Shown: positions 3,440 through 18,843 of the stretch, piece after piece
How positions within the stretch are numbered: position 1 is the first letter of the stretch
Layout: every line of letters starts with the position of its first letter
Assembly: GCA_944380925.1 (NCBI GenBank)
Contig: CALWJD010000006.1
Location: forward strand, 8,395-72,394
Reading direction: 5' to 3'
Length of the DNA: 64,000 nucleotides
From: an uncultured Clostridia bacterium
GTDB lineage: Bacteria; Bacillota; Clostridia; Oscillospirales; Acutalibacteraceae
Position numbers and translations under genes: made by a program
Notes under the pieces: model-generated
What the model was told of the DNA's origin: nothing
The model's database searches: none
Seen by the model: the letters and a program-made list of their open reading frames with translations, nothing else

Positions 3440-4363
3440 CTATTTATTGGCTAATTTATAATTTTTATTTTCAAGATTACTAAGTCTGCAACGCTTTTCA
3501 GTAATGAATCCTAATGGTATTCCGTTTGCGTTATTAACCATTCGCTTAATATCGGGATCAAAATGTTTTATATAGCTATTTATTAGTTCCGTTCTACCTT
3601 TTTCAAATGCAGGATCTTCAATATGCATTATATCGTTATCGTCAATTTTAAGTATGTTTACAAAATGGCCGGATGTTGTATGGTTGGCAAGTAAGCTAAA
3701 CGGTTTTTTGCCGATTTTTTCATATATATCTTTTATTGACGATTTTATATTATCTTCGCTAGAGTTTGGCTGTATGTATGCTACTTGGTATGTAAGTTTT
3801 CCATCTGAAACTTCTTCAATATACTTTCCTATCATACTAGGAAATATAACATTATTCGTTTTACATGTATTATGTTCTTTACTTTTCATGTTTTCTTTTG
3901 AGCTATAAATGGATAGCCCTATATTACGATCATTTTCTAAAATGGGAATAGATTTTTCATTTGATATTTTTTCGAATATTTCTTTTTGGCTTTTATTTAT
4001 TCCGTGATATTTTAAAAGACCTTGCAAGCATGCAAGCCAGCACCACATTTTTCCTTCTTGTTTTTTTGTAATTTCACAGTCCGTTAACGTTTTACCGTAT
4101 CTTTTTGAAAAATTTTGTGATGATTTATATATCTGTTTTTTATATTTAAATTCGTCATAAAATTTAAGACCCGCGGATATATCATAAAATTGAACGGCGG
4201 TATTAAAAAGGAAATCTGATGCATTAAAATCTAATTCTTGATTTAATAATATTTGAAGTTTAATTTGGCCATTTGAGCTTCCTAAATTATGTGCCGAGGT
4301 TTTTGTCGGAAGCAGCAGGCCCAGGGAAATTAAATATACTAAAGTTTTTTTGAATGTCGTCAT
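3440..4363 (-). CDS. secreted papain-fold cysteine peptidase, peptidase C39-like domain
   Basis: N-terminal signal peptide (LISLGLLLPTKTSA). The segment QEGKMWCWLACLQGLLKYHGINKSQKEI fits the Gln...Cys nucleophile pattern of C39-like domains. A downstream His candidate sits in TTSGHFVNILKID. Confidence 0.6.
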   Translation of the reverse strand: MTTFKKTLVYLISLGLLLPTKTSAHNLGSSNGQIKLQILLNQELDFNASDFLFNTAVQFYDISAGLKFYDEFKYKKQIYKSSQNFSKRYGKTLTDCEITKKQEGKMWCWLACLQGLLKYHGINKSQKEIFEKISNEKSIPILENDRNIGLSIYSSKENMKSKEHNTCKTNNVIFPSMIGKYIEEVSDGKLTYQVAYIQPNSSEDNIKSSIKDIYEKIGKKPFSLLANHTTSGHFVNILKIDDNDIMHIEDPAFEKGRTELINSYIKHFDPDIKRMVNNANGIPLGFITEKRCRLSNLENKNYKLANK

Positions 4364-4407
4364 TATTTAAAGGTATCTCCAAGATCATATTTGATTTTTA
4401 TATTCAT

Positions 4408-4436
4408 ATTATAACATAAAATTAACCAAAAATCAA
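4408..4436 (-). promoter_or_regulatory. promoter of the C39-like peptidase gene
   Basis: On the minus strand: TTGATT, 17 nt, TATAAT, with a TGn extended -10. Confidence 0.55.
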
Positions 4437-4462
4437 TATGTGTGCAATCTTAAAAATAAATC

Positions 4463-4491
4463 TTGCATTATCTTGGAATATATGATAAACT
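4463..4491 (+). promoter_or_regulatory. candidate rpsB promoter
   Basis: TTGCAT, 17 nt, TAAACT, with a TGn extended -10. It lies about 100 nt upstream of the rpsB start. Confidence 0.45.
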
Positions 4492-4592
4492 TAAACAGCT
4501 ACATTACACACGTTGAGGGAAAACAAAATACGCAGGTGGCTTTTATTAAAGCTCAGTCTCAACGGAGGAAAAACCAAGGAGGAAGATATTTA

Positions 4593-5366
4593 ATGTCAGT
4601 AGTATCAATGAAACAACTTTTGGAAGCGGGTGTTCACTTTGGACACCAAACACGTAGGTGGAATCCTAAAATGGCGGAGTATATATTTACTCAGCGCAAT
4701 GGAATCTACATTATCGATCTTCAGAAAACAGTAAAGAAACTCGATCAAGCGTTTAATTTCGTCAAAGAATTAACAGAGCAAGGCAAGTCCGTTTTGTTTG
4801 TCGGAACGAAAAAGCAAGCTCAAGAATCTGTTAAATCGGAAGCAATAAAATCAGGTTCATTTTATGTAAACGCAAGATGGCTTGGCGGAATGCTTACCAA
4901 CTTTTCAACCATTCGTACGAGAGTAAATAGGCTAAAACAGCTAAGAGCCATGGAAGAAGACGGAACATTTGATTTGTTACCTAAAAAGGAAGTTGTAAAA
5001 CTTCGTTTGGAAATTGAAAAACTCGAAAAGTTTTTGGGCGGAGTCGAAGAGATGAAAGAACTCCCGGGAGCTTTGTTCGTCGTGGACCCCAAGAAGGAAC
5101 GTATTGCCGTTGCAGAGGCACGTAAATTGGATATTCCTGTAGTTGCAATTGTAGATACAAACTGCGATCCTGATGCGGTTGACTATGTAATACCAGGAAA
5201 TGACGATGCAATAAGAGCAGTTAAACTTATTTGTGAGGCTATGTCCAGAGCTATCATAGAGGGAAAAGAGGGCGAAATAGTTGCCGAAGAAGTTCCCGTA
5301 GAAGTCTCGGAAGAAGAATTTTTGGCTTCTGAGCCTGCTGAAGAGAGCGTAGCTACTGAGGAATAA
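4593..5366 (+). CDS. rpsB: 30S ribosomal protein S2
   Basis: [27 protein letters not shown] is the conserved S2 N-terminus. AAGGAGG lies upstream of the ATG at 4593. The ORF-track start at 4440 is an upstream extension. Confidence 0.97.
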
Positions 5367-13580: not shown

Positions 13581-13593
13581 AATTTAAAAGTAA

Positions 13594-13626
13594 TCTCCCC
13601 GAGTATTAAGCCCGGGGAGATTTTTT
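13594..13626 (+). terminator. intrinsic terminator after typA
   Basis: Stem tctccccg / cggggaga followed by tttttt. Confidence 0.85.
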
Positions 13627-13753
13627 ATGGTAAATTCACGTTTTTACACATGATTTATTATGGCATTTACACTAACATTAAAAACCATATTGCAGAAACA
13701 TATGCTATTCTATTATAATTACAAGCGAATAAAAATAATGAGGAAGATTAACC

Positions 13754-15247
13754 TTGAAAAACAAGCTAAAAGTTTTTGTTTCACTCTTTGCGTTTTTAAG
13801 TACCATTATTTTTTGCGCTTCATTCGGCAATAAGGTGCTGGCGTCTGCTTTGGATGACGAACCCGTAGACGTAATTATTAAATACATCGATCTAACAGAC
13901 AAGCATTTAAAAAGAGAAGGCGTACCTCAGATTAAAAAAGACTATGATAATGAAGAGTTACGCTACGCACTAAGATCAATCGATAAGAATATGCCTTGGG
14001 TAAGAAAGACTTTTATTGTTATGCCCAATGAAAAAGTAAGATTTTTAAAAGATAAAGATTTAATAAGCGATAAGATAGTATACGTTAAAGATAAAGATTT
14101 AGTGGGCTTTGATAGCGCATCATGCACTGTATATGAGCTTAACCTTTGGAGAATGGGCAAATTTGGATGTTCAAAAAATTTCATATACATGAATGATGAT
14201 TATTTTATAGGTAAGCCGGTTAAGAAATCGGACTTCTTCTATGAAGAAAATGGTAAAGTTGTTCCTTATGTTCTATACAATAAAGGTCTCGGAAGAGGCA
14301 AAAACGCCGAAATTCACGCACGTTTGAGAGAACTATCACAGCAAGTAAATTCTACCAATAAAAATGCTCACTCAAGTGCAGGATTTCAGTATCAAAAGCT
14401 CTCCAGCATTGAGTTCCTCTATAATATCCTTGGCAAAAATATTATAACACCTGCCGGTGATTACCATTACTTTCCACATAATGCTCAGGGAGAAAATATA
14501 GACGAACTGAAGGAAGTTCATGATTGGATTAAAAATAAATATAAATATGCCGATGATTGCCTCCAGGCTAAGTGTAGAAGACAGCATTCGTTGGTGCAAC
14601 AAACAGTTTATACTTTTTACATACTAAATAAGTACAATAGAAAAGTTAATAATTTAAGAGGTGACTATATTGATCTGCATTGGGCGAGCTCAGCTAACCT
14701 AAATGTACCTCTCTTTTGTATAAATACCGGCGGAAATATGAATTATACAGATGCGGATTACGCTAAAGCCAGGGCAGTAATGAATAAAGCTTTTCCGATA
14801 CCCACAAAGTATGAAAAACAAGATTTAGCGGATGGTGTGTATGTCATCGAGAGTGCTTTACAGAAAAATAAAGTTTTAGATATAGCAGAGGCGAGCAGTA
14901 AAGATAATGCCAATTTACAGCTCTGGGATAGAAATGGCACAAACGCTCAGAAATTTAGAGTTAGTTACGATAAAACCAAAGGATTTTACACGATCTCACC
15001 GCTTTGTTCAGGCAAAAATTTGGGAGTAAGAGGAACAAACGCCAATATTTTGCAGTGTAATAAAAATAACAACAAAACTCAAAAATGGCATTTAATTTCT
15101 GCGGGTCGTGGCTATTTCTACATATCTTCAAACAGTAATAGCCTTTTTGCAGATGTAAGTATATCTAATACGAGAAATGGTACGAACGTTCGCTGTTGGG
15201 AACCAAACGGTACCAATGCTCAGAAGTTTAGATTTATTAGGCAATAA
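13754..15247 (+). CDS. signal-peptide-bearing Stealth-family (hexose-1-phosphoryl transferase-like) protein fused to a C-terminal ricin-B (beta-trefoil) lectin domain
   Basis: TTG start with GAGGAAG upstream, and a signal peptide (FAFLSTIIFCASFGNKVLASA). Stealth conserved regions are present: VDVIIKYIDLTD (CR1), EELRYALRSIDKNMPWVRKTFIVMP (CR2), FIYMNDDYF (CR3) and YHYFPHN (CR4). The C-terminus has three QxW-type repeats (AQKFRV, TQKWHL, AQKFRF). Confidence 0.75.
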   Translation: MKNKLKVFVSLFAFLSTIIFCASFGNKVLASALDDEPVDVIIKYIDLTDKHLKREGVPQIKKDYDNEELRYALRSIDKNMPWVRKTFIVMPNEKVRFLKDKDLISDKIVYVKDKDLVGFDSASCTVYELNLWRMGKFGCSKNFIYMNDDYFIGKPVKKSDFFYEENGKVVPYVLYNKGLGRGKNAEIHARLRELSQQVNSTNKNAHSSAGFQYQKLSSIEFLYNILGKNIITPAGDYHYFPHNAQGENIDELKEVHDWIKNKYKYADDCLQAKCRRQHSLVQQTVYTFYILNKYNRKVNNLRGDYIDLHWASSANLNVPLFCINTGGNMNYTDADYAKARAVMNKAFPIPTKYEKQDLADGVYVIESALQKNKVLDIAEASSKDNANLQLWDRNGTNAQKFRVSYDKTKGFYTISPLCSGKNLGVRGTNANILQCNKNNNKTQKWHLISAGRGYFYISSNSNSLFADVSISNTRNGTNVRCWEPNGTNAQKFRFIRQ

Positions 15248-17976: not shown

Positions 17977-18843
17977 ATGCCAAACAAAAATAAAGCTCAG
18001 GAATGGTTACAGACAACCGTGTTAGCTATGGGTAGTGTGGCGCTTGCTACAACATCGGTAGCAATGATATATTTAACTTCGCTAGCTCATCAAGGTAAGG
18101 GGGCCTTAGCTAGGCTAGATACGGCTGTAGATCAGTTAATGGGTAATGCTCCTCATACCGAAGGTTCTGCAGTTGCGGAATTGGGTCCGACTCTTCGTGC
18201 TCTGGCGGATGTACTTAGAGAAGTACATGATAGAGAACTAATTGATCGGTTTTCGACGGTACTCGGAGATGTCCACGATGAAGAACTAGCTGCTCGATTG
18301 ACTATGTTGGTAGATCAACTAAATGGGTCCTATGTAATGATTCCTCGCCAAGATGTTGAATTTATCATTACAGGATTAAACGATGTTAAAGCGCATTACG
18401 ATCGTCTTGATGCTAGCGGAAAAGCTGCTGTGCAGCGCAATGTTTTCCAGAGCCATAGAAGTCGTGGCATAGAAGATCTTCCTACGTTTACCGATAGAAT
18501 GATGTCCGGTATATTTAATTTTGCGAGTGTATTGCAAAATTATCTGCGGTTAAACTGTGGGGTATTTGCTATCTCCAATATAACACGTGGACTTGTTGAA
18601 GCATTGAGAACATTTGAAGCAAACAGTAGCGAGGGTGGAAGTTATACCGTAGGATCGTATAGCAGTGATTTGCGTCGTGTTTTAGATTCAGCCGCACCAT
18701 TAGCTGCTTTCATGGTTGTAACCACAGACGGTAGACCTCCTCGTCTCCATAACTTGGTTAATACGGTGCCGGATACAGTGCGTAACGTGCAGACTGGATG
18801 GTTTGGTAATTTGCTCAGATGGATTGGAGTTCTACCACAGTAA
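17977..18843 (+). CDS. orphan protein with a signal peptide or membrane anchor, foreign base composition, unknown function
   Basis: Clean 288-aa ORF with a strong SD. The N-terminal hydrophobic segment is TTVLAMGSVALATTSVAMIYLTSLA. The protein is Ala/Arg/Val/Leu-rich, and I recognise no family. Confidence 0.75.
   Translation: MPNKNKAQEWLQTTVLAMGSVALATTSVAMIYLTSLAHQGKGALARLDTAVDQLMGNAPHTEGSAVAELGPTLRALADVLREVHDRELIDRFSTVLGDVHDEELAARLTMLVDQLNGSYVMIPRQDVEFIITGLNDVKAHYDRLDASGKAAVQRNVFQSHRSRGIEDLPTFTDRMMSGIFNFASVLQNYLRLNCGVFAISNITRGLVEALRTFEANSSEGGSYTVGSYSSDLRRVLDSAAPLAAFMVVTTDGRPPRLHNLVNTVPDTVRNVQTGWFGNLLRWIGVLPQ

Follow-up and report, generated by a model that had tools for sequence, protein, structure and literature searches.

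The open reading frame at positions 13754..15247 (+ strand) of the window, i.e., the whole analysed stretch of 64,000 nucleotides from an uncultured Clostridia bacterium, encodes a protein of 497 amino acids in which a predicted Sec-type signal peptide is followed by a seemingly active Stealth sugar-1-phosphate transferase domain and a C-terminal ricin-type lectin domain. Our main reading, to which we assign a probability of roughly one half, is that the product is an exported enzyme acting inside a host cell, where it would phosphoglycosylate the glycan bound by its lectin domain using UDP-sugars of the host. When bacteria make glycans from nucleotide sugars, this is taken to happen strictly in the cytoplasm, and lipid-linked donors are used outside of the membrane. 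This topological rule may be broken here, as a compact genome encodes about ten Leloir-type enzymes with export signals, one of them the Stealth-lectin protein described here. If these enzymes are active at the sites to which their signals direct them, a Gram-positive intracellular parasite would be able to make or modify glycans within its host from host donors. A recently recognised clade of Clostridia living in protists, which is also present in human and ruminant guts, would thereby be given a concrete and testable function.

The reading frame was confirmed with TTG as start codon. The start at 13754 is backed by homologues that also open with MKNKLK (e.g., P0004), and a Shine-Dalgarno sequence, GAGGAAG, is read at 13740..13746 (+ strand), 7 nt 5' of the TTG. 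Further upstream, a strong predicted hairpin terminator of typA/bipA (13592..13622, + strand; ctccccgag...cccggggag plus a T run) comprises 12 pairs, seven of them G-C, with the scan reporting the palindromic stem on the - strand; as judged from this hairpin, the Stealth gene is in a transcription unit of its own. Its neighbours are typA, an SDR gene, a lipoprotein gene and nth, the SDR and the lipoprotein having been named correctly in the sequence-only reading of this DNA. The G+C content of the gene (35.3%) is close to that of the window (34.8%) and therefore does not indicate a recent arrival. In five genus-mates the region 3' of typA was fetched and none of the downstream genes of the window was found; synteny is thus not kept there, and the comparison does not tell an insertion from a deletion. 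A pattern scan of the genome contigs matched a single related species (L001). More informative was a six-frame genome search, in which only six of 24 genus-mates have a Stealth gene and two of these copies look broken; the gene is dispensable, which counts against the main reading.

The signal peptide (residues 1-32; 13754..13849, + strand) was called heuristically from its physico-chemical pattern. The n-region MKNKLK is followed by an h-region of 18 hydrophobic residues, VFVSLFAFLSTIIFCASF, and by the c-region GNKVLASA, with cleavage predicted from the sequence pattern after A30 or A32. The N-terminal flank carries a charge of +3, small residues occupy positions -3 and -1 in an AxA site, and the residues following VLA-SA-L are acidic and net negative. 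This succession of a basic N-terminus, a hydrophobic core, small residues at -3/-1 and an acidic stretch is seen again in almost every full-length homologue from bacteria, with differing letters, and its recurrence bears out the signal peptide that had been proposed earlier. In the AlphaFold model residues 2-24 form a helix followed by a low-confidence linker (22-29), and the segment may be an uncleaved signal anchor instead of a cleaved peptide. From this pattern we infer that the protein is exported across the bacterial membrane by Sec.

The opposite topology, a cytoplasmic Stealth polymerase at the inner membrane face whose N-terminal helix is oriented N-out/C-in and was misread as a signal peptide, is very improbable. 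It would place the protein alongside the characterised bacterial Stealth enzymes, which act in the cytoplasm (PMC5974469), and the bacterium makes its own UDP-glucose; moreover, a GT8 glycosyltransferase encoded next to a paralogue of the gene is ambiguous in its orientation, with basic residues flanking its helix on both sides. However, the +3 N-flank, the net negative C-flank and the AxA site are the reverse of the requirements of an N-out anchor, and they recur across homologues. The ricin-type domain and the signal-peptide-bearing GT8, GT2 and ricin fusions point outward as well, genes for polymer export are absent near the window copy, and canonical Clostridia Stealth proteins are devoid of such an N-terminus. 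One of these, L015 of genome G398, lacks a signal peptide, carries CLND and is encoded between an acyltransferase-like membrane protein and an unannotated gene, in line with the contrast that the sequence-only reading drew with cytoplasmic capsule-locus enzymes.

The Stealth hexose-1-phosphate transferase domain covers residues 37-357 (13862..14824, + strand) and was assigned by the Pfam match to CR2, a profile match to GNPTAB and CpsY, the fold and an alignment with canonical Stealth proteins. All four conserved regions are recognisable, as had been stated before: CR2 by Pfam, and CR1, CR3 and CR4 by profile, fold and alignment, the Pfam models of these three regions giving no match to the product even at E<=10. 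The Pfam model Stealth_CR2 matches residues 64-168 (E 1.3e-23; 83.7 bits vs a cut-off of 39.4). For the family, an IDVVYTF or closely similar motif in CR1, a most conserved CR2 of ~100 residues (PF11380), a strictly conserved His and Arg in CR3 (GNPTAB H956 and R986) and CLND/CIND in CR4 were described (Sperisen et al., 2005; PMC1285062). CR1 (EPVDVIIKYIDLTD; 13862..13900, + strand), recognised by profile and alignment, reads VDVIIKY in the query and IDVV(I/Y)KY in the subfamily, aligns with PIDVVYTW of GNPTAB and contains D39, Y44, D46 and D49, which are invariant in the subfamily. CR2 (13937..14257, + strand) contains K62, E128, N147 and D148-D149, equivalent to GNPTAB R322, E389, N406 and D407-D408; by this correspondence, D148-D149 is the metal/ribose-binding pair (roles from PMC9388126). 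CR3 (14465..14602, + strand), found by alignments, contains H242 (GNPTAB H956, the proposed general base; PMC9388126), R275 (R986) and Q282/Q283 (Q992), with a spacing from the histidine to the arginine of 33 residues compared to 30 in GNPTAB. CR4 (14711..14815, + strand; FCINTGG and FPIPTKYE) was assigned by profile and alignment. Here the Mg-binding asparagine is kept (N324, equivalent to GNPTAB N1151), whereas the following aspartate is replaced throughout the subfamily, including its ciliate members; the tetrapeptide is CINT in this protein and CINK in the paralogue vs CLND/CIND in the family. This departure of CINT from a near-universal motif speaks against the main reading.

Similarity to the family is low, with only 122 of 2327 Stealth representatives falling below E 1e-30 against the product. 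With a profile built from 20 homologues, GNPTAB and CpsY are matched across CR1 and CR2 and weakly across CR4. A MAFFT alignment with canonical Stealth proteins that have no signal peptide brings VDVIIKY (CR1), NDD, H242, R275 and C-I-N324-T into register with IDxV, NDD, H, R and CLND. D148, D149, H242, R275 and N324 correspond to GNPTAB D407, D408, H956, R986 and N1151, mutants of which lose activity 200-fold or more (PMC9388126). All five are (near-)invariant in the 20 homologues, H242 and R275 being strictly so, and the same applies to the counterparts of the GlcNAc-contacting residues of GNPTAB. The AlphaFold model (pLDDT 89.4, pTM 0.86) has as top PDB fold matches CpsY of Mycobacterium tuberculosis (8j2n; TM 0.81 on target, E 6e-17) and the GNPTAB entries 9bgf, 7s6n and 7s05. 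The conservation of the five catalytic and metal-binding residues together with the fold match suggests that the domain is seemingly active; a loss of catalytic residues, which the sequence-only reading had considered, is not seen, and the non-catalytic role that it had offered is unlikely.

The ricin-type beta-trefoil lectin domain (residues 358-497; 14825..15244, + strand) was assigned by Pfam, by a profile match to ThreeFoil, by fold and by column counts. RicinB_lectin_2 (PF14200) matches in three stretches within residues 359-492 (E 2.4e-22, 79.9 bits) and Ricin_B_lectin (PF00652) matches residues 365-492 (E 7e-11, 42.8 bits), while NCBIfam gives weak matches to lectin subfamilies only, far under the cut-offs. 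In the PDB, ThreeFoil is matched by profile (E 1e-30) and the fold matches comprise HA33, the CBM13 of 1,3Gal43A and fungal agglutinins. By Pfam and fold, the beta-trefoil itself is as expected from the earlier reading, but its repeat is not a strict (QxW)3, reading QKF, QKW and QKF in the three subdomains. Judged from column counts, the predicted sugar sites alpha (D376/W391) and gamma (D467/W482) look intact and the beta site appears degenerate, having G424 and L433 at positions that are aspartate and an aromatic residue (tryptophan) in most relatives. Ricin-type domains in bacteria are usually extracellular.

The order of signal peptide, four Stealth regions and ricin lectin is thus as it had been read, and in metagenomes it is fairly common, with about 30 clusters at 90% identity. 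Its function is not characterised, and the objection that the architecture might prove both common and already characterised therefore fails. One relative bears the public name "RICIN domain-containing protein." A secreted enzyme with a CBM13 is also the usual layout of polysaccharide degraders, and xylanase, galactanase and arabinofuranosidase modules are among the PDB matches of the lectin domain. The protein might accordingly be degradative or purely binding, its Stealth domain being inactive or acting as a phosphodiesterase on sugar-phosphate polymers such as teichoic acids, phosphomannan or protist phosphoglycans for foraging. We regard this as quite improbable: all transferase residues are strongly conserved, including the aspartate pair for nucleotide and metal binding, and the partners of the protein are transferases and not hydrolases. 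Furthermore, we know of no Stealth enzyme that acts as a hydrolase.

That the gene stands alone holds for the window, in which no capsule genes are found near this copy, but not for the genome, in which ten Leloir-type GT-A enzymes carry a signal peptide or anchor, namely two Stealth-ricin proteins, two GT8 and six GT2 enzymes encoded in tandem. The Stealth paralogue (C1:334157-335662) begins 31 bp 3' of the gene for the GT8 with a signal anchor mentioned above, and the gene order HtrA-GT8-Stealth-IF3 recurs in another genome. The second GT8 of the genome has a signal peptide, and the GT8 partners in genus-mates have predicted cleavable ones. The six tandem GT2 genes with signal peptide or anchor keep DSDD motifs; four further GT2 genes have no signal. 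Relatives show fusions of the same modules, i.e., signal peptide-Stealth-GT8 (P0034, P0041), signal peptide-GT2-GT8 adjoining signal peptide-Stealth, and signal peptide-GT8-ricin. The family of signal-peptide-bearing GT2 enzymes is present in 21 of 24 genus-mates and in none of 16 genomes of other families, and C-terminal tails rich in lysine occur on several GT2 and GT8 enzymes of this exported set.

The genome (G000) is 1.33 Mb in size at 99% completeness, and those of its genus-mates are mostly 0.8-1.4 Mb. It encodes an ATP/ADP translocase (TLC/NTT, PF03219; E 7e-141) that is 58% identical to that of Ca. Paraimprobicoccus trichonymphae; such a translocase is present in 24/24 sampled genus-mates, 0/16 outside genomes and 0/14 controls. 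A small-genome clade of Acutalibacteraceae was described as intracellular energy parasites of gut protists, with a conserved ATP/ADP translocase, genomes of ~1.0-1.4 Mb and low G+C (PMC10579323), and eukaryote-like genes of this protist-parasite clade often carry Sec signals (PMC10579323; PMC10579272; bioRxiv 10.1101/2025.07.29.667580). The presumed placement of the present genome in this clade rests on its translocase, its size and the low G+C content of the window (34.8%) together with one homologue labelled Acutalibacteraceae. From translocase, genome size and relatives we infer that the species lives inside a protist host. Hosts with no known protist partner account for many clade members, which counts against this reading.

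The predicted location outside of the bacterial cytoplasm raises the question of the donor substrate, and the sequence-only reading was correct to ask it. According to the main reading, the Sec signal peptide would carry a catalytically competent sugar-1-phosphate transferase over the bacterial membrane and the C-terminal lectin would tether it to a glycan. The donor would most likely be a UDP-HexNAc, used with Mg or Mn, and in a one-step reaction a hydroxyl of the acceptor would attack the beta-phosphate, with release of UMP. The outside of the bacterium would most likely be the host cytoplasm or a symbiont vacuole with host nucleotide sugars at hand; with these within reach, the donor paradox would be resolved. 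A bacterium in a vacuole would need a host transporter for nucleotide sugars, which is a point against this reading. Together with the exported GT8 and GT2 enzymes, the Stealth-ricin protein might add sugar-phosphate and sugars to a surface glycan, the acceptor being either the wall of the bacterium itself or a host glycoconjugate, and the product might be a phosphoglycan like the one presumably made by homologous enzymes of ciliates. The about ten exported glycosyltransferases probably run on activated sugars of the host cell. In the genome, galU (UDP-glucose) and a glmU-like reading frame, which is short (UDP-GlcNAc probable), are present, and no clear copy of galE was found; the presence of the first two means that gene content does not force a reliance on host donors.

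Two further explanations share the export of the enzyme. One is that a free-living or surface-attached bacterium modifies a wall polymer, the enzyme transferring sugar-1-phosphate from an undecaprenyl-PP-sugar to a wall glycan in an LCP-like manner. Signal peptide and lectin would place the enzyme at the wall, no host has to be assumed, the lipid-linked donor resembles a UDP-sugar at the pyrophosphate, and the chemistry would not differ, as in both cases the pyrophosphate is attacked at its sugar-proximal phosphate (PMC9388126). We consider this explanation unlikely, as the position of D148 for ribose and second-metal binding and those of I41 and Y127, which sandwich the base, are kept, pointing to a nucleotide donor, and as the GT8 and GT2 enzymes exported alongside belong to the classical users of nucleotide sugars and have an intact DxD. 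To our knowledge, there is no GT-A or Stealth enzyme with a polyprenyl-linked donor. Moreover, the translocase and the homologues in ciliates would be left unexplained.

The other one, to which we give a similarly small chance, is that the protein is a secreted effector whose lectin binds host glycans and whose enzyme tags these with sugar-1-phosphate, possibly diverting trafficking or blocking digestion of the symbiont compartment, comparable to the tag that GNPTAB places on lysosomal enzymes. It draws on the same evidence for export and life in a host cell as the main reading, and the clade was reported to secrete eukaryote-like regulators via Sec (PMC10579323); the large ciliate family of homologous membrane-bound enzymes and the lysine-rich tails of the co-exported enzymes would fit as well. 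However, glycans are scarce in the host cytoplasm, which would require a vacuolar or endomembrane site, no host target can be named, and being tightly linked or fused to GT8 and GT2 suits the building of a polymer better than the tagging of single sites.

The closest non-bacterial relatives belong to a large gene family of rumen ciliates on telomere-capped nanochromosomes. As an example, L004 is a chromosome of 2443 bp capped by CCCCAAT repeats, the rumen-ciliate telomere, and its product P0066 combines a signal peptide, a beta-trefoil, a Stealth domain, a coiled coil and a transmembrane segment; proteins of this type are about 46-48% identical over the Stealth domain. This tie to ciliates is one of the arguments for the main reading. 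The ciliate proteins are 45-50% identical to the product over the whole Stealth domain and share its CINT motif; they also have a signal peptide and are likewise combined with a beta-trefoil (hhalign probability 96.7%). In contrast, their trefoil is N-terminal and missed by Pfam, they additionally contain a coiled coil and are anchored in the membrane at the C-terminus, they are about 700 amino acids long and their family is greatly expanded. A quick ML tree shows three eukaryote-like clades nested in a bacterial-like grade, with its root placed on a very long branch to the outgroup; when all 41 eukaryote-like rows are constrained to a single clade, the cost is only 1.1 lnL (AU p 0.49). Because this cost is so small and the outgroup branch so long, neither a direction nor a number of transfers is claimed.

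A more far-reaching version of the main reading, an "outsourced glycocalyx," is put forward tentatively and is clearly less likely. An intracellular Gram-positive parasite of gut ciliates might export a toolkit of Stealth, GT8 and GT2 enzymes, several of them bearing lectin domains or lysine-rich tails, and use it to build a host-like phosphoglycan coat from host nucleotide sugars, without lipid carriers, flippases and capsule exporters, the Stealth-lectin module having been exchanged with its ciliate hosts. Apart from this version, the family appears to represent an exchange of genes among bacteria and protists living in the same gut. It also ties these bacteria to a large and unstudied ciliate family of presumed phosphoglycosylation enzymes of the cell surface or secretory pathway, and a compact soluble enzyme could serve as a model or tool for sugar-1-phosphate transfer.

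[quoted passage not shown] Unlike the present protein, they are cytoplasmic, have no signal peptide and belong to capsule or EPS loci, whereas here the predicted exported enzyme has a lectin domain, carries CINT for CLND and is encoded among housekeeping genes. CslB of N. meningitidis was considered as a precedent for a polymerase combining Stealth and GT domains and was dropped, as it has no similarity to Stealth (PMC5974469). In GNPTAB (7s05, 7s6n, 9bgf) the catalytic domain likewise faces away from the cytoplasm and enters by a secretory route, and its contacts to UDP-GlcNAc have counterparts here (E128, N147, D148, D149, H242, R275, Q282/283, N324). Furthermore, the MRH domain of the GNPT gamma subunit, for which a role in directing glycans towards the active site was proposed, parallels the ricin-type domain. 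However, GNPTAB contains large Notch, DMAP1 and EF-hand inserts, spans the membrane with two helices and is activated by a protease, while the Stealth domain described here is compact (about 320 amino acids) and bacterial-like, with a glycine in place of the acceptor-side N1153. The animal polypeptide GalNAc-transferases (GT27) join a GT-A domain to a C-terminal ricin-type lectin that steers them to glycosylated acceptors in a non-cytoplasmic compartment. Only this layout is similar, as GT27 enzymes are an unrelated catalytic family, eukaryotic and Golgi-resident, and move a sugar and not a sugar phosphate. Finally, in Chlamydia trachomatis the glycogen synthase GlgA is reportedly secreted into the inclusion lumen, where it is said to use UDP-glucose imported from the host. 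GlgA differs in being a GT5 enzyme of GT-B fold, in its type III secretion, in belonging to another phylum and in its product, glycogen; as a Leloir-type enzyme that is released from the bacterium and makes its glycan within a host-derived compartment, it is nevertheless the best precedent for the proposed solution to the donor question.

The most plausible view of the Stealth-ricin protein is that it belongs to a set of exported glycosylation enzymes in a bacterium that probably lives as an endosymbiont of protists. Its gene is real and intact. The ORF (13754-15247, forward strand, 497 residues) begins 130 nt downstream of the typA/bipA hairpin terminator (13592-13622) and starts with a TTG codon, which lies seven bases 3' of GAGGAAG and is supported by the identical MKNKLK N-terminus of close homologues. 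In G+C content the gene (35.3%) does not differ from the window (34.8%), and the surrounding genes serve housekeeping functions, with der, plsY, a gene for a histidine phosphatase and typA upstream, and downstream, next to the SDR (Pfam adh_short_C2) and lipoprotein genes already recognized by the sequence-only reading, nth and thrS. The order plsY-phosphatase-typA-Stealth...nth-thrS is retained in a related species, the Stealth protein of which (P0002) is 77% identical. A 288-aa ORF between nth and thrS (17977-18843, forward strand) is without Pfam match.

The sequence-only reading had claimed that all four Stealth conserved regions (CR1-CR4) are present, and this was borne out, although of the Pfam models only Stealth_CR2 matches (residues 64-168) and those for CR1, CR3 and CR4 gave no match on the protein. 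In an alignment of 20 homologues D39, Y44, D46 and D49 of CR1, a long run of residues in CR2, H242-N-A and R275 of CR3, and N324 and F347-P-x-x-T-x-Y-E of CR4 are invariant. The profile of this alignment matches the eukaryotic GlcNAc-1-phosphotransferase GNPTAB and CpsY of M. tuberculosis over CR1 and CR2 and weakly over CR4, and in a MAFFT alignment with canonical Stealth proteins lacking a signal peptide the NDD motif, the histidine, the arginine and the asparagine of CLND all line up. In the GNPTAB structure D408 and N1151 bind Mg1, D407 binds the ribose and Mg2, R986 contacts the phosphates and H956 is the assigned general base, and mutating these residues costs 200-fold or more in activity (PMC9388126); the counterparts are D149, N324, D148, R275 and H242, respectively. 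Moreover, the GlcNAc-contacting residues E389, N406, Q992 and S385 correspond to E128, N147, Q282/283 and S123/C124, which hints at UDP-HexNAc as the putative donor. AlphaFold modelled the protein with high confidence (pLDDT 89.4, pTM 0.86), and the best PDB matches of the N-terminal domain are CpsY (TM 0.81 on target) and GNPTAB. The C-terminal domain matches the Pfam ricin-type beta-trefoil (residues 359-492), and its model is closest to ThreeFoil, HA33, CBM13 modules and fungal agglutinins. Of the proposed (QxW)3 beta-trefoil the fold stands; the repeat reads QKF/QKW/QKF, with the alpha and gamma sites apparently intact and the beta site degenerate. This lectin domain would also suit a degradative or binding role, a rival explanation that is unlikely given the conserved catalytic residues.

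Signal peptides (SP, Sec-type) were assigned by rule throughout. In residues 1-32 a basic n-region leads into 18 hydrophobic residues and VLA-SA; acidic residues come next. In the homologues the letters vary freely up to the conserved L-E-x-E-P-I-D-V-V while the pattern is kept, the mode in which cleaved signal peptides evolve. The cleavable-looking signal peptide noticed earlier persists across homologues as a predicted SP or anchor, and the positive-inside rule predicts an outside location of the catalytic domain. The rival reading, a cytoplasmic enzyme with an anchor misread as a signal peptide, is unlikely. A paralogue (C1:334157-335662) repeats the SP-Stealth-ricin architecture and shares 46% identity with the protein across the Stealth domain; a gene for a GT8 glycosyltransferase having an N-terminal hydrophobic helix lies 31 bp upstream of it. 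The pair (C1:334157-336660) is located between htrA and infC, and the order HtrA-GT8-Stealth/ricin-IF3 is also kept in another genome (L005). In genus-mates the GT8 adjoining Stealth carries, by rule, a textbook cleavable SP (L008, L010) or an anchor (L011). Furthermore, fusions of SP-Stealth-GT8 (P0034, P0041), SP-GT8-ricin (P0371, P0376) and SP-GT2-GT8 (P0260, directly 5' of an SP-Stealth gene) join these domains, placing Stealth, GT8, GT2 and ricin on one side of the membrane. A phmmer sweep over all ORFs of the genome identified a second SP-GT8 (C5:110384-111448) with a cleavable-looking SP (…TVNA-ANQ) and a Lys-rich C-terminal tail, and six tandem GT2 genes between lepA and pnp (C12:6035-13041), each with an SP or anchor. 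In the latter the N-end is basic, a hydrophobic core follows, and acidic or small residues form the junction to VSVI(I/M)PVYN, which opens the GT2 fold; DSDD is intact in all six and three have long Lys-rich tails, such tails occurring on several of the exported enzymes. Four other GT2 genes of the genome have no signal and begin directly at the fold. The SP-GT2 family is present in 21/24 genus-mates; the 16 genomes sampled from other families gave no match at E<=1e-40. Hence the gene does not stand alone, as had been supposed; it is one of ten nucleotide-sugar enzymes with export signals in 1.33 Mb (with the paralogue and GT8 pair, the SP-GT8 and the six GT2), too many to be put down to a single mispredicted signal peptide.

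The genome (1.33 Mb, 99% complete) encodes a full-length ATP/ADP translocase of the TLC/NTT family (C2:105961-107412, E 7e-141), 58% identical to that of Ca. Paraimprobicoccus trichonymphae, and a second, divergent TLC-like gene (C4:66661-67917). The translocase occurs in 24/24 genus-mates, the genomes of which are mostly 0.8-1.4 Mb, and in 0/16 representatives of other families and 0/14 control genomes. We infer that the organism belongs to the Acutalibacteraceae small-genome clade, which has a conserved ATP/ADP translocase, includes human and ruminant gut MAGs, and of which the studied members live in the cytoplasm of termite-gut flagellates (PMC10579323). Of this lineage, Ca. Vesiculincola pelomyxae (1.4 Mb, 33% G+C) inhabits vesicles of an anaerobic amoeba (PMC10579272); its GT8 (P0321) bears a type-II anchor and shares 47% identity with the GT8 of our genome. 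For a rumen MAG of the clade, enrichment in ciliate fractions has been reported (bioRxiv 10.1101/2025.07.29.667580). The word "glycosyltransferase" is found neither in PMC10579323 nor in this preprint, and "Stealth" is absent from the latter. As for sugar nucleotide genes, galU is intact, a clear galE was not found in the genome, and a glmU-like ORF (C3:33553-34548) has only 354 aa and scores under the family cut-off. A less likely rival is a free-living cell in which the exported enzyme draws on a lipid-PP-sugar donor at the wall; it leaves the translocase and the ciliate homologues unexplained. The eukaryote-like genes of the clade, about half of them with Sec signals and "most probably secreted" (PMC10579323), would accord with another less likely rival, a host-directed effector.

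The subfamily is distinct and rare in bacteria. A search with the Stealth domain against 1.84 billion cluster representatives yielded 2327 proteins at E<=1e-3 and only 122 at E<=1e-30. For relatives, a single public name turned up, [quoted passage not shown]. In species genomes, six-frame searches detected the subfamily in 6/24 other species of the genus and in none of 200 further genomes of the order; among 399 others of the class a single one matched weakly (L015), with a canonical Stealth without SP and with CLND, flanked by genes for an acyltransferase-like membrane protein and another unannotated protein. Two genus-mates carry copies split into two adjacent ORFs (L001:2282-3768; L013/L014, G214:C1:32118-33088), due to either gene decay or MAG assembly error, and the gene is accordingly accessory in the genus. 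Beside the Stealth gene of L001, a goat-gut MAG contig, an SP protein (4222-4875, reverse strand) has a C-terminal half that is ankyrin-repeat-like by eye. A metagenomic GT2-Stealth fusion of the subfamily without SP (P0161, 623 aa) may be a cytoplasmic member and offers a helpful comparison.

The majority of subfamily representatives are AT-rich, 600-700 aa long and on contigs of ~2.3 kb. One such locus, L004 (2443 bp, 21% G+C), is capped at both ends by CCCCAAT repeats. These form the telomeres of Entodinium and of every other rumen ciliate examined (PMC6211341; bioRxiv 10.1101/2022.01.05.474053), so that L004 represents an entire macronuclear chromosome of a ciliate. The protein encoded on it has an SP, then an N-terminal domain resembling the ricin trefoil (hhalign probability 96.7%, E 3e-10) and a Stealth domain with CINT, and finally a coiled coil and an anchor at the C-terminus. 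The Stealth protein P0038 (ENA contigs L016-L018, 45-52% G+C; 51% identical) adjoins SprT-like and RasGAP genes and thus belongs to a non-ciliate eukaryote; its called ORF, without SP, may be one exon. A further eukaryotic group with 18-19% G+C combines Stealth with a C-terminal ricin domain. In a quick ML tree with a weak root the eukaryotic sequences are nested inside bacterial-like ones, and a single eukaryotic clade is compatible with the data (AU p 0.49). Stealth genes were clearly exchanged, in one direction or the other, between gut protists and these bacteria.

The intact Stealth site, export signal, lectin, linkage to exported GT8/GT2, translocase-bearing reduced genome and ciliate homologues together suggest a mechanism for the exported toolkit. 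The protein would be exported into a host compartment containing UDP-sugars, where the lectin domain may bind a glycan. D148/D149, R275 and N324 would hold Mg-bound UDP-HexNAc and H242 would deprotonate an acceptor hydroxyl, which would attack the beta-phosphate with UMP leaving. Acting together with its GT8 and GT2 partners, the enzyme could produce glycans that contain sugar phosphate, either on the surface of the bacterium or on glycoconjugates of the host.

Within the Stealth family the protein represents a variant that is new in both architecture and topology. Canonical members lack an SP and have CLND; here an SP is present and the CR4 hallmark CLND/CIND (PMC1285062) reads CINT, being altered throughout the subfamily. 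The rumen-ciliate protein shares CINT, but its trefoil is N-terminal instead of C-terminal. The use of host UDP-sugars proposed here has a precedent in Chlamydia, in which a secreted bacterial glycosyltransferase reportedly acts in a vacuole fed by host UDP-glucose.
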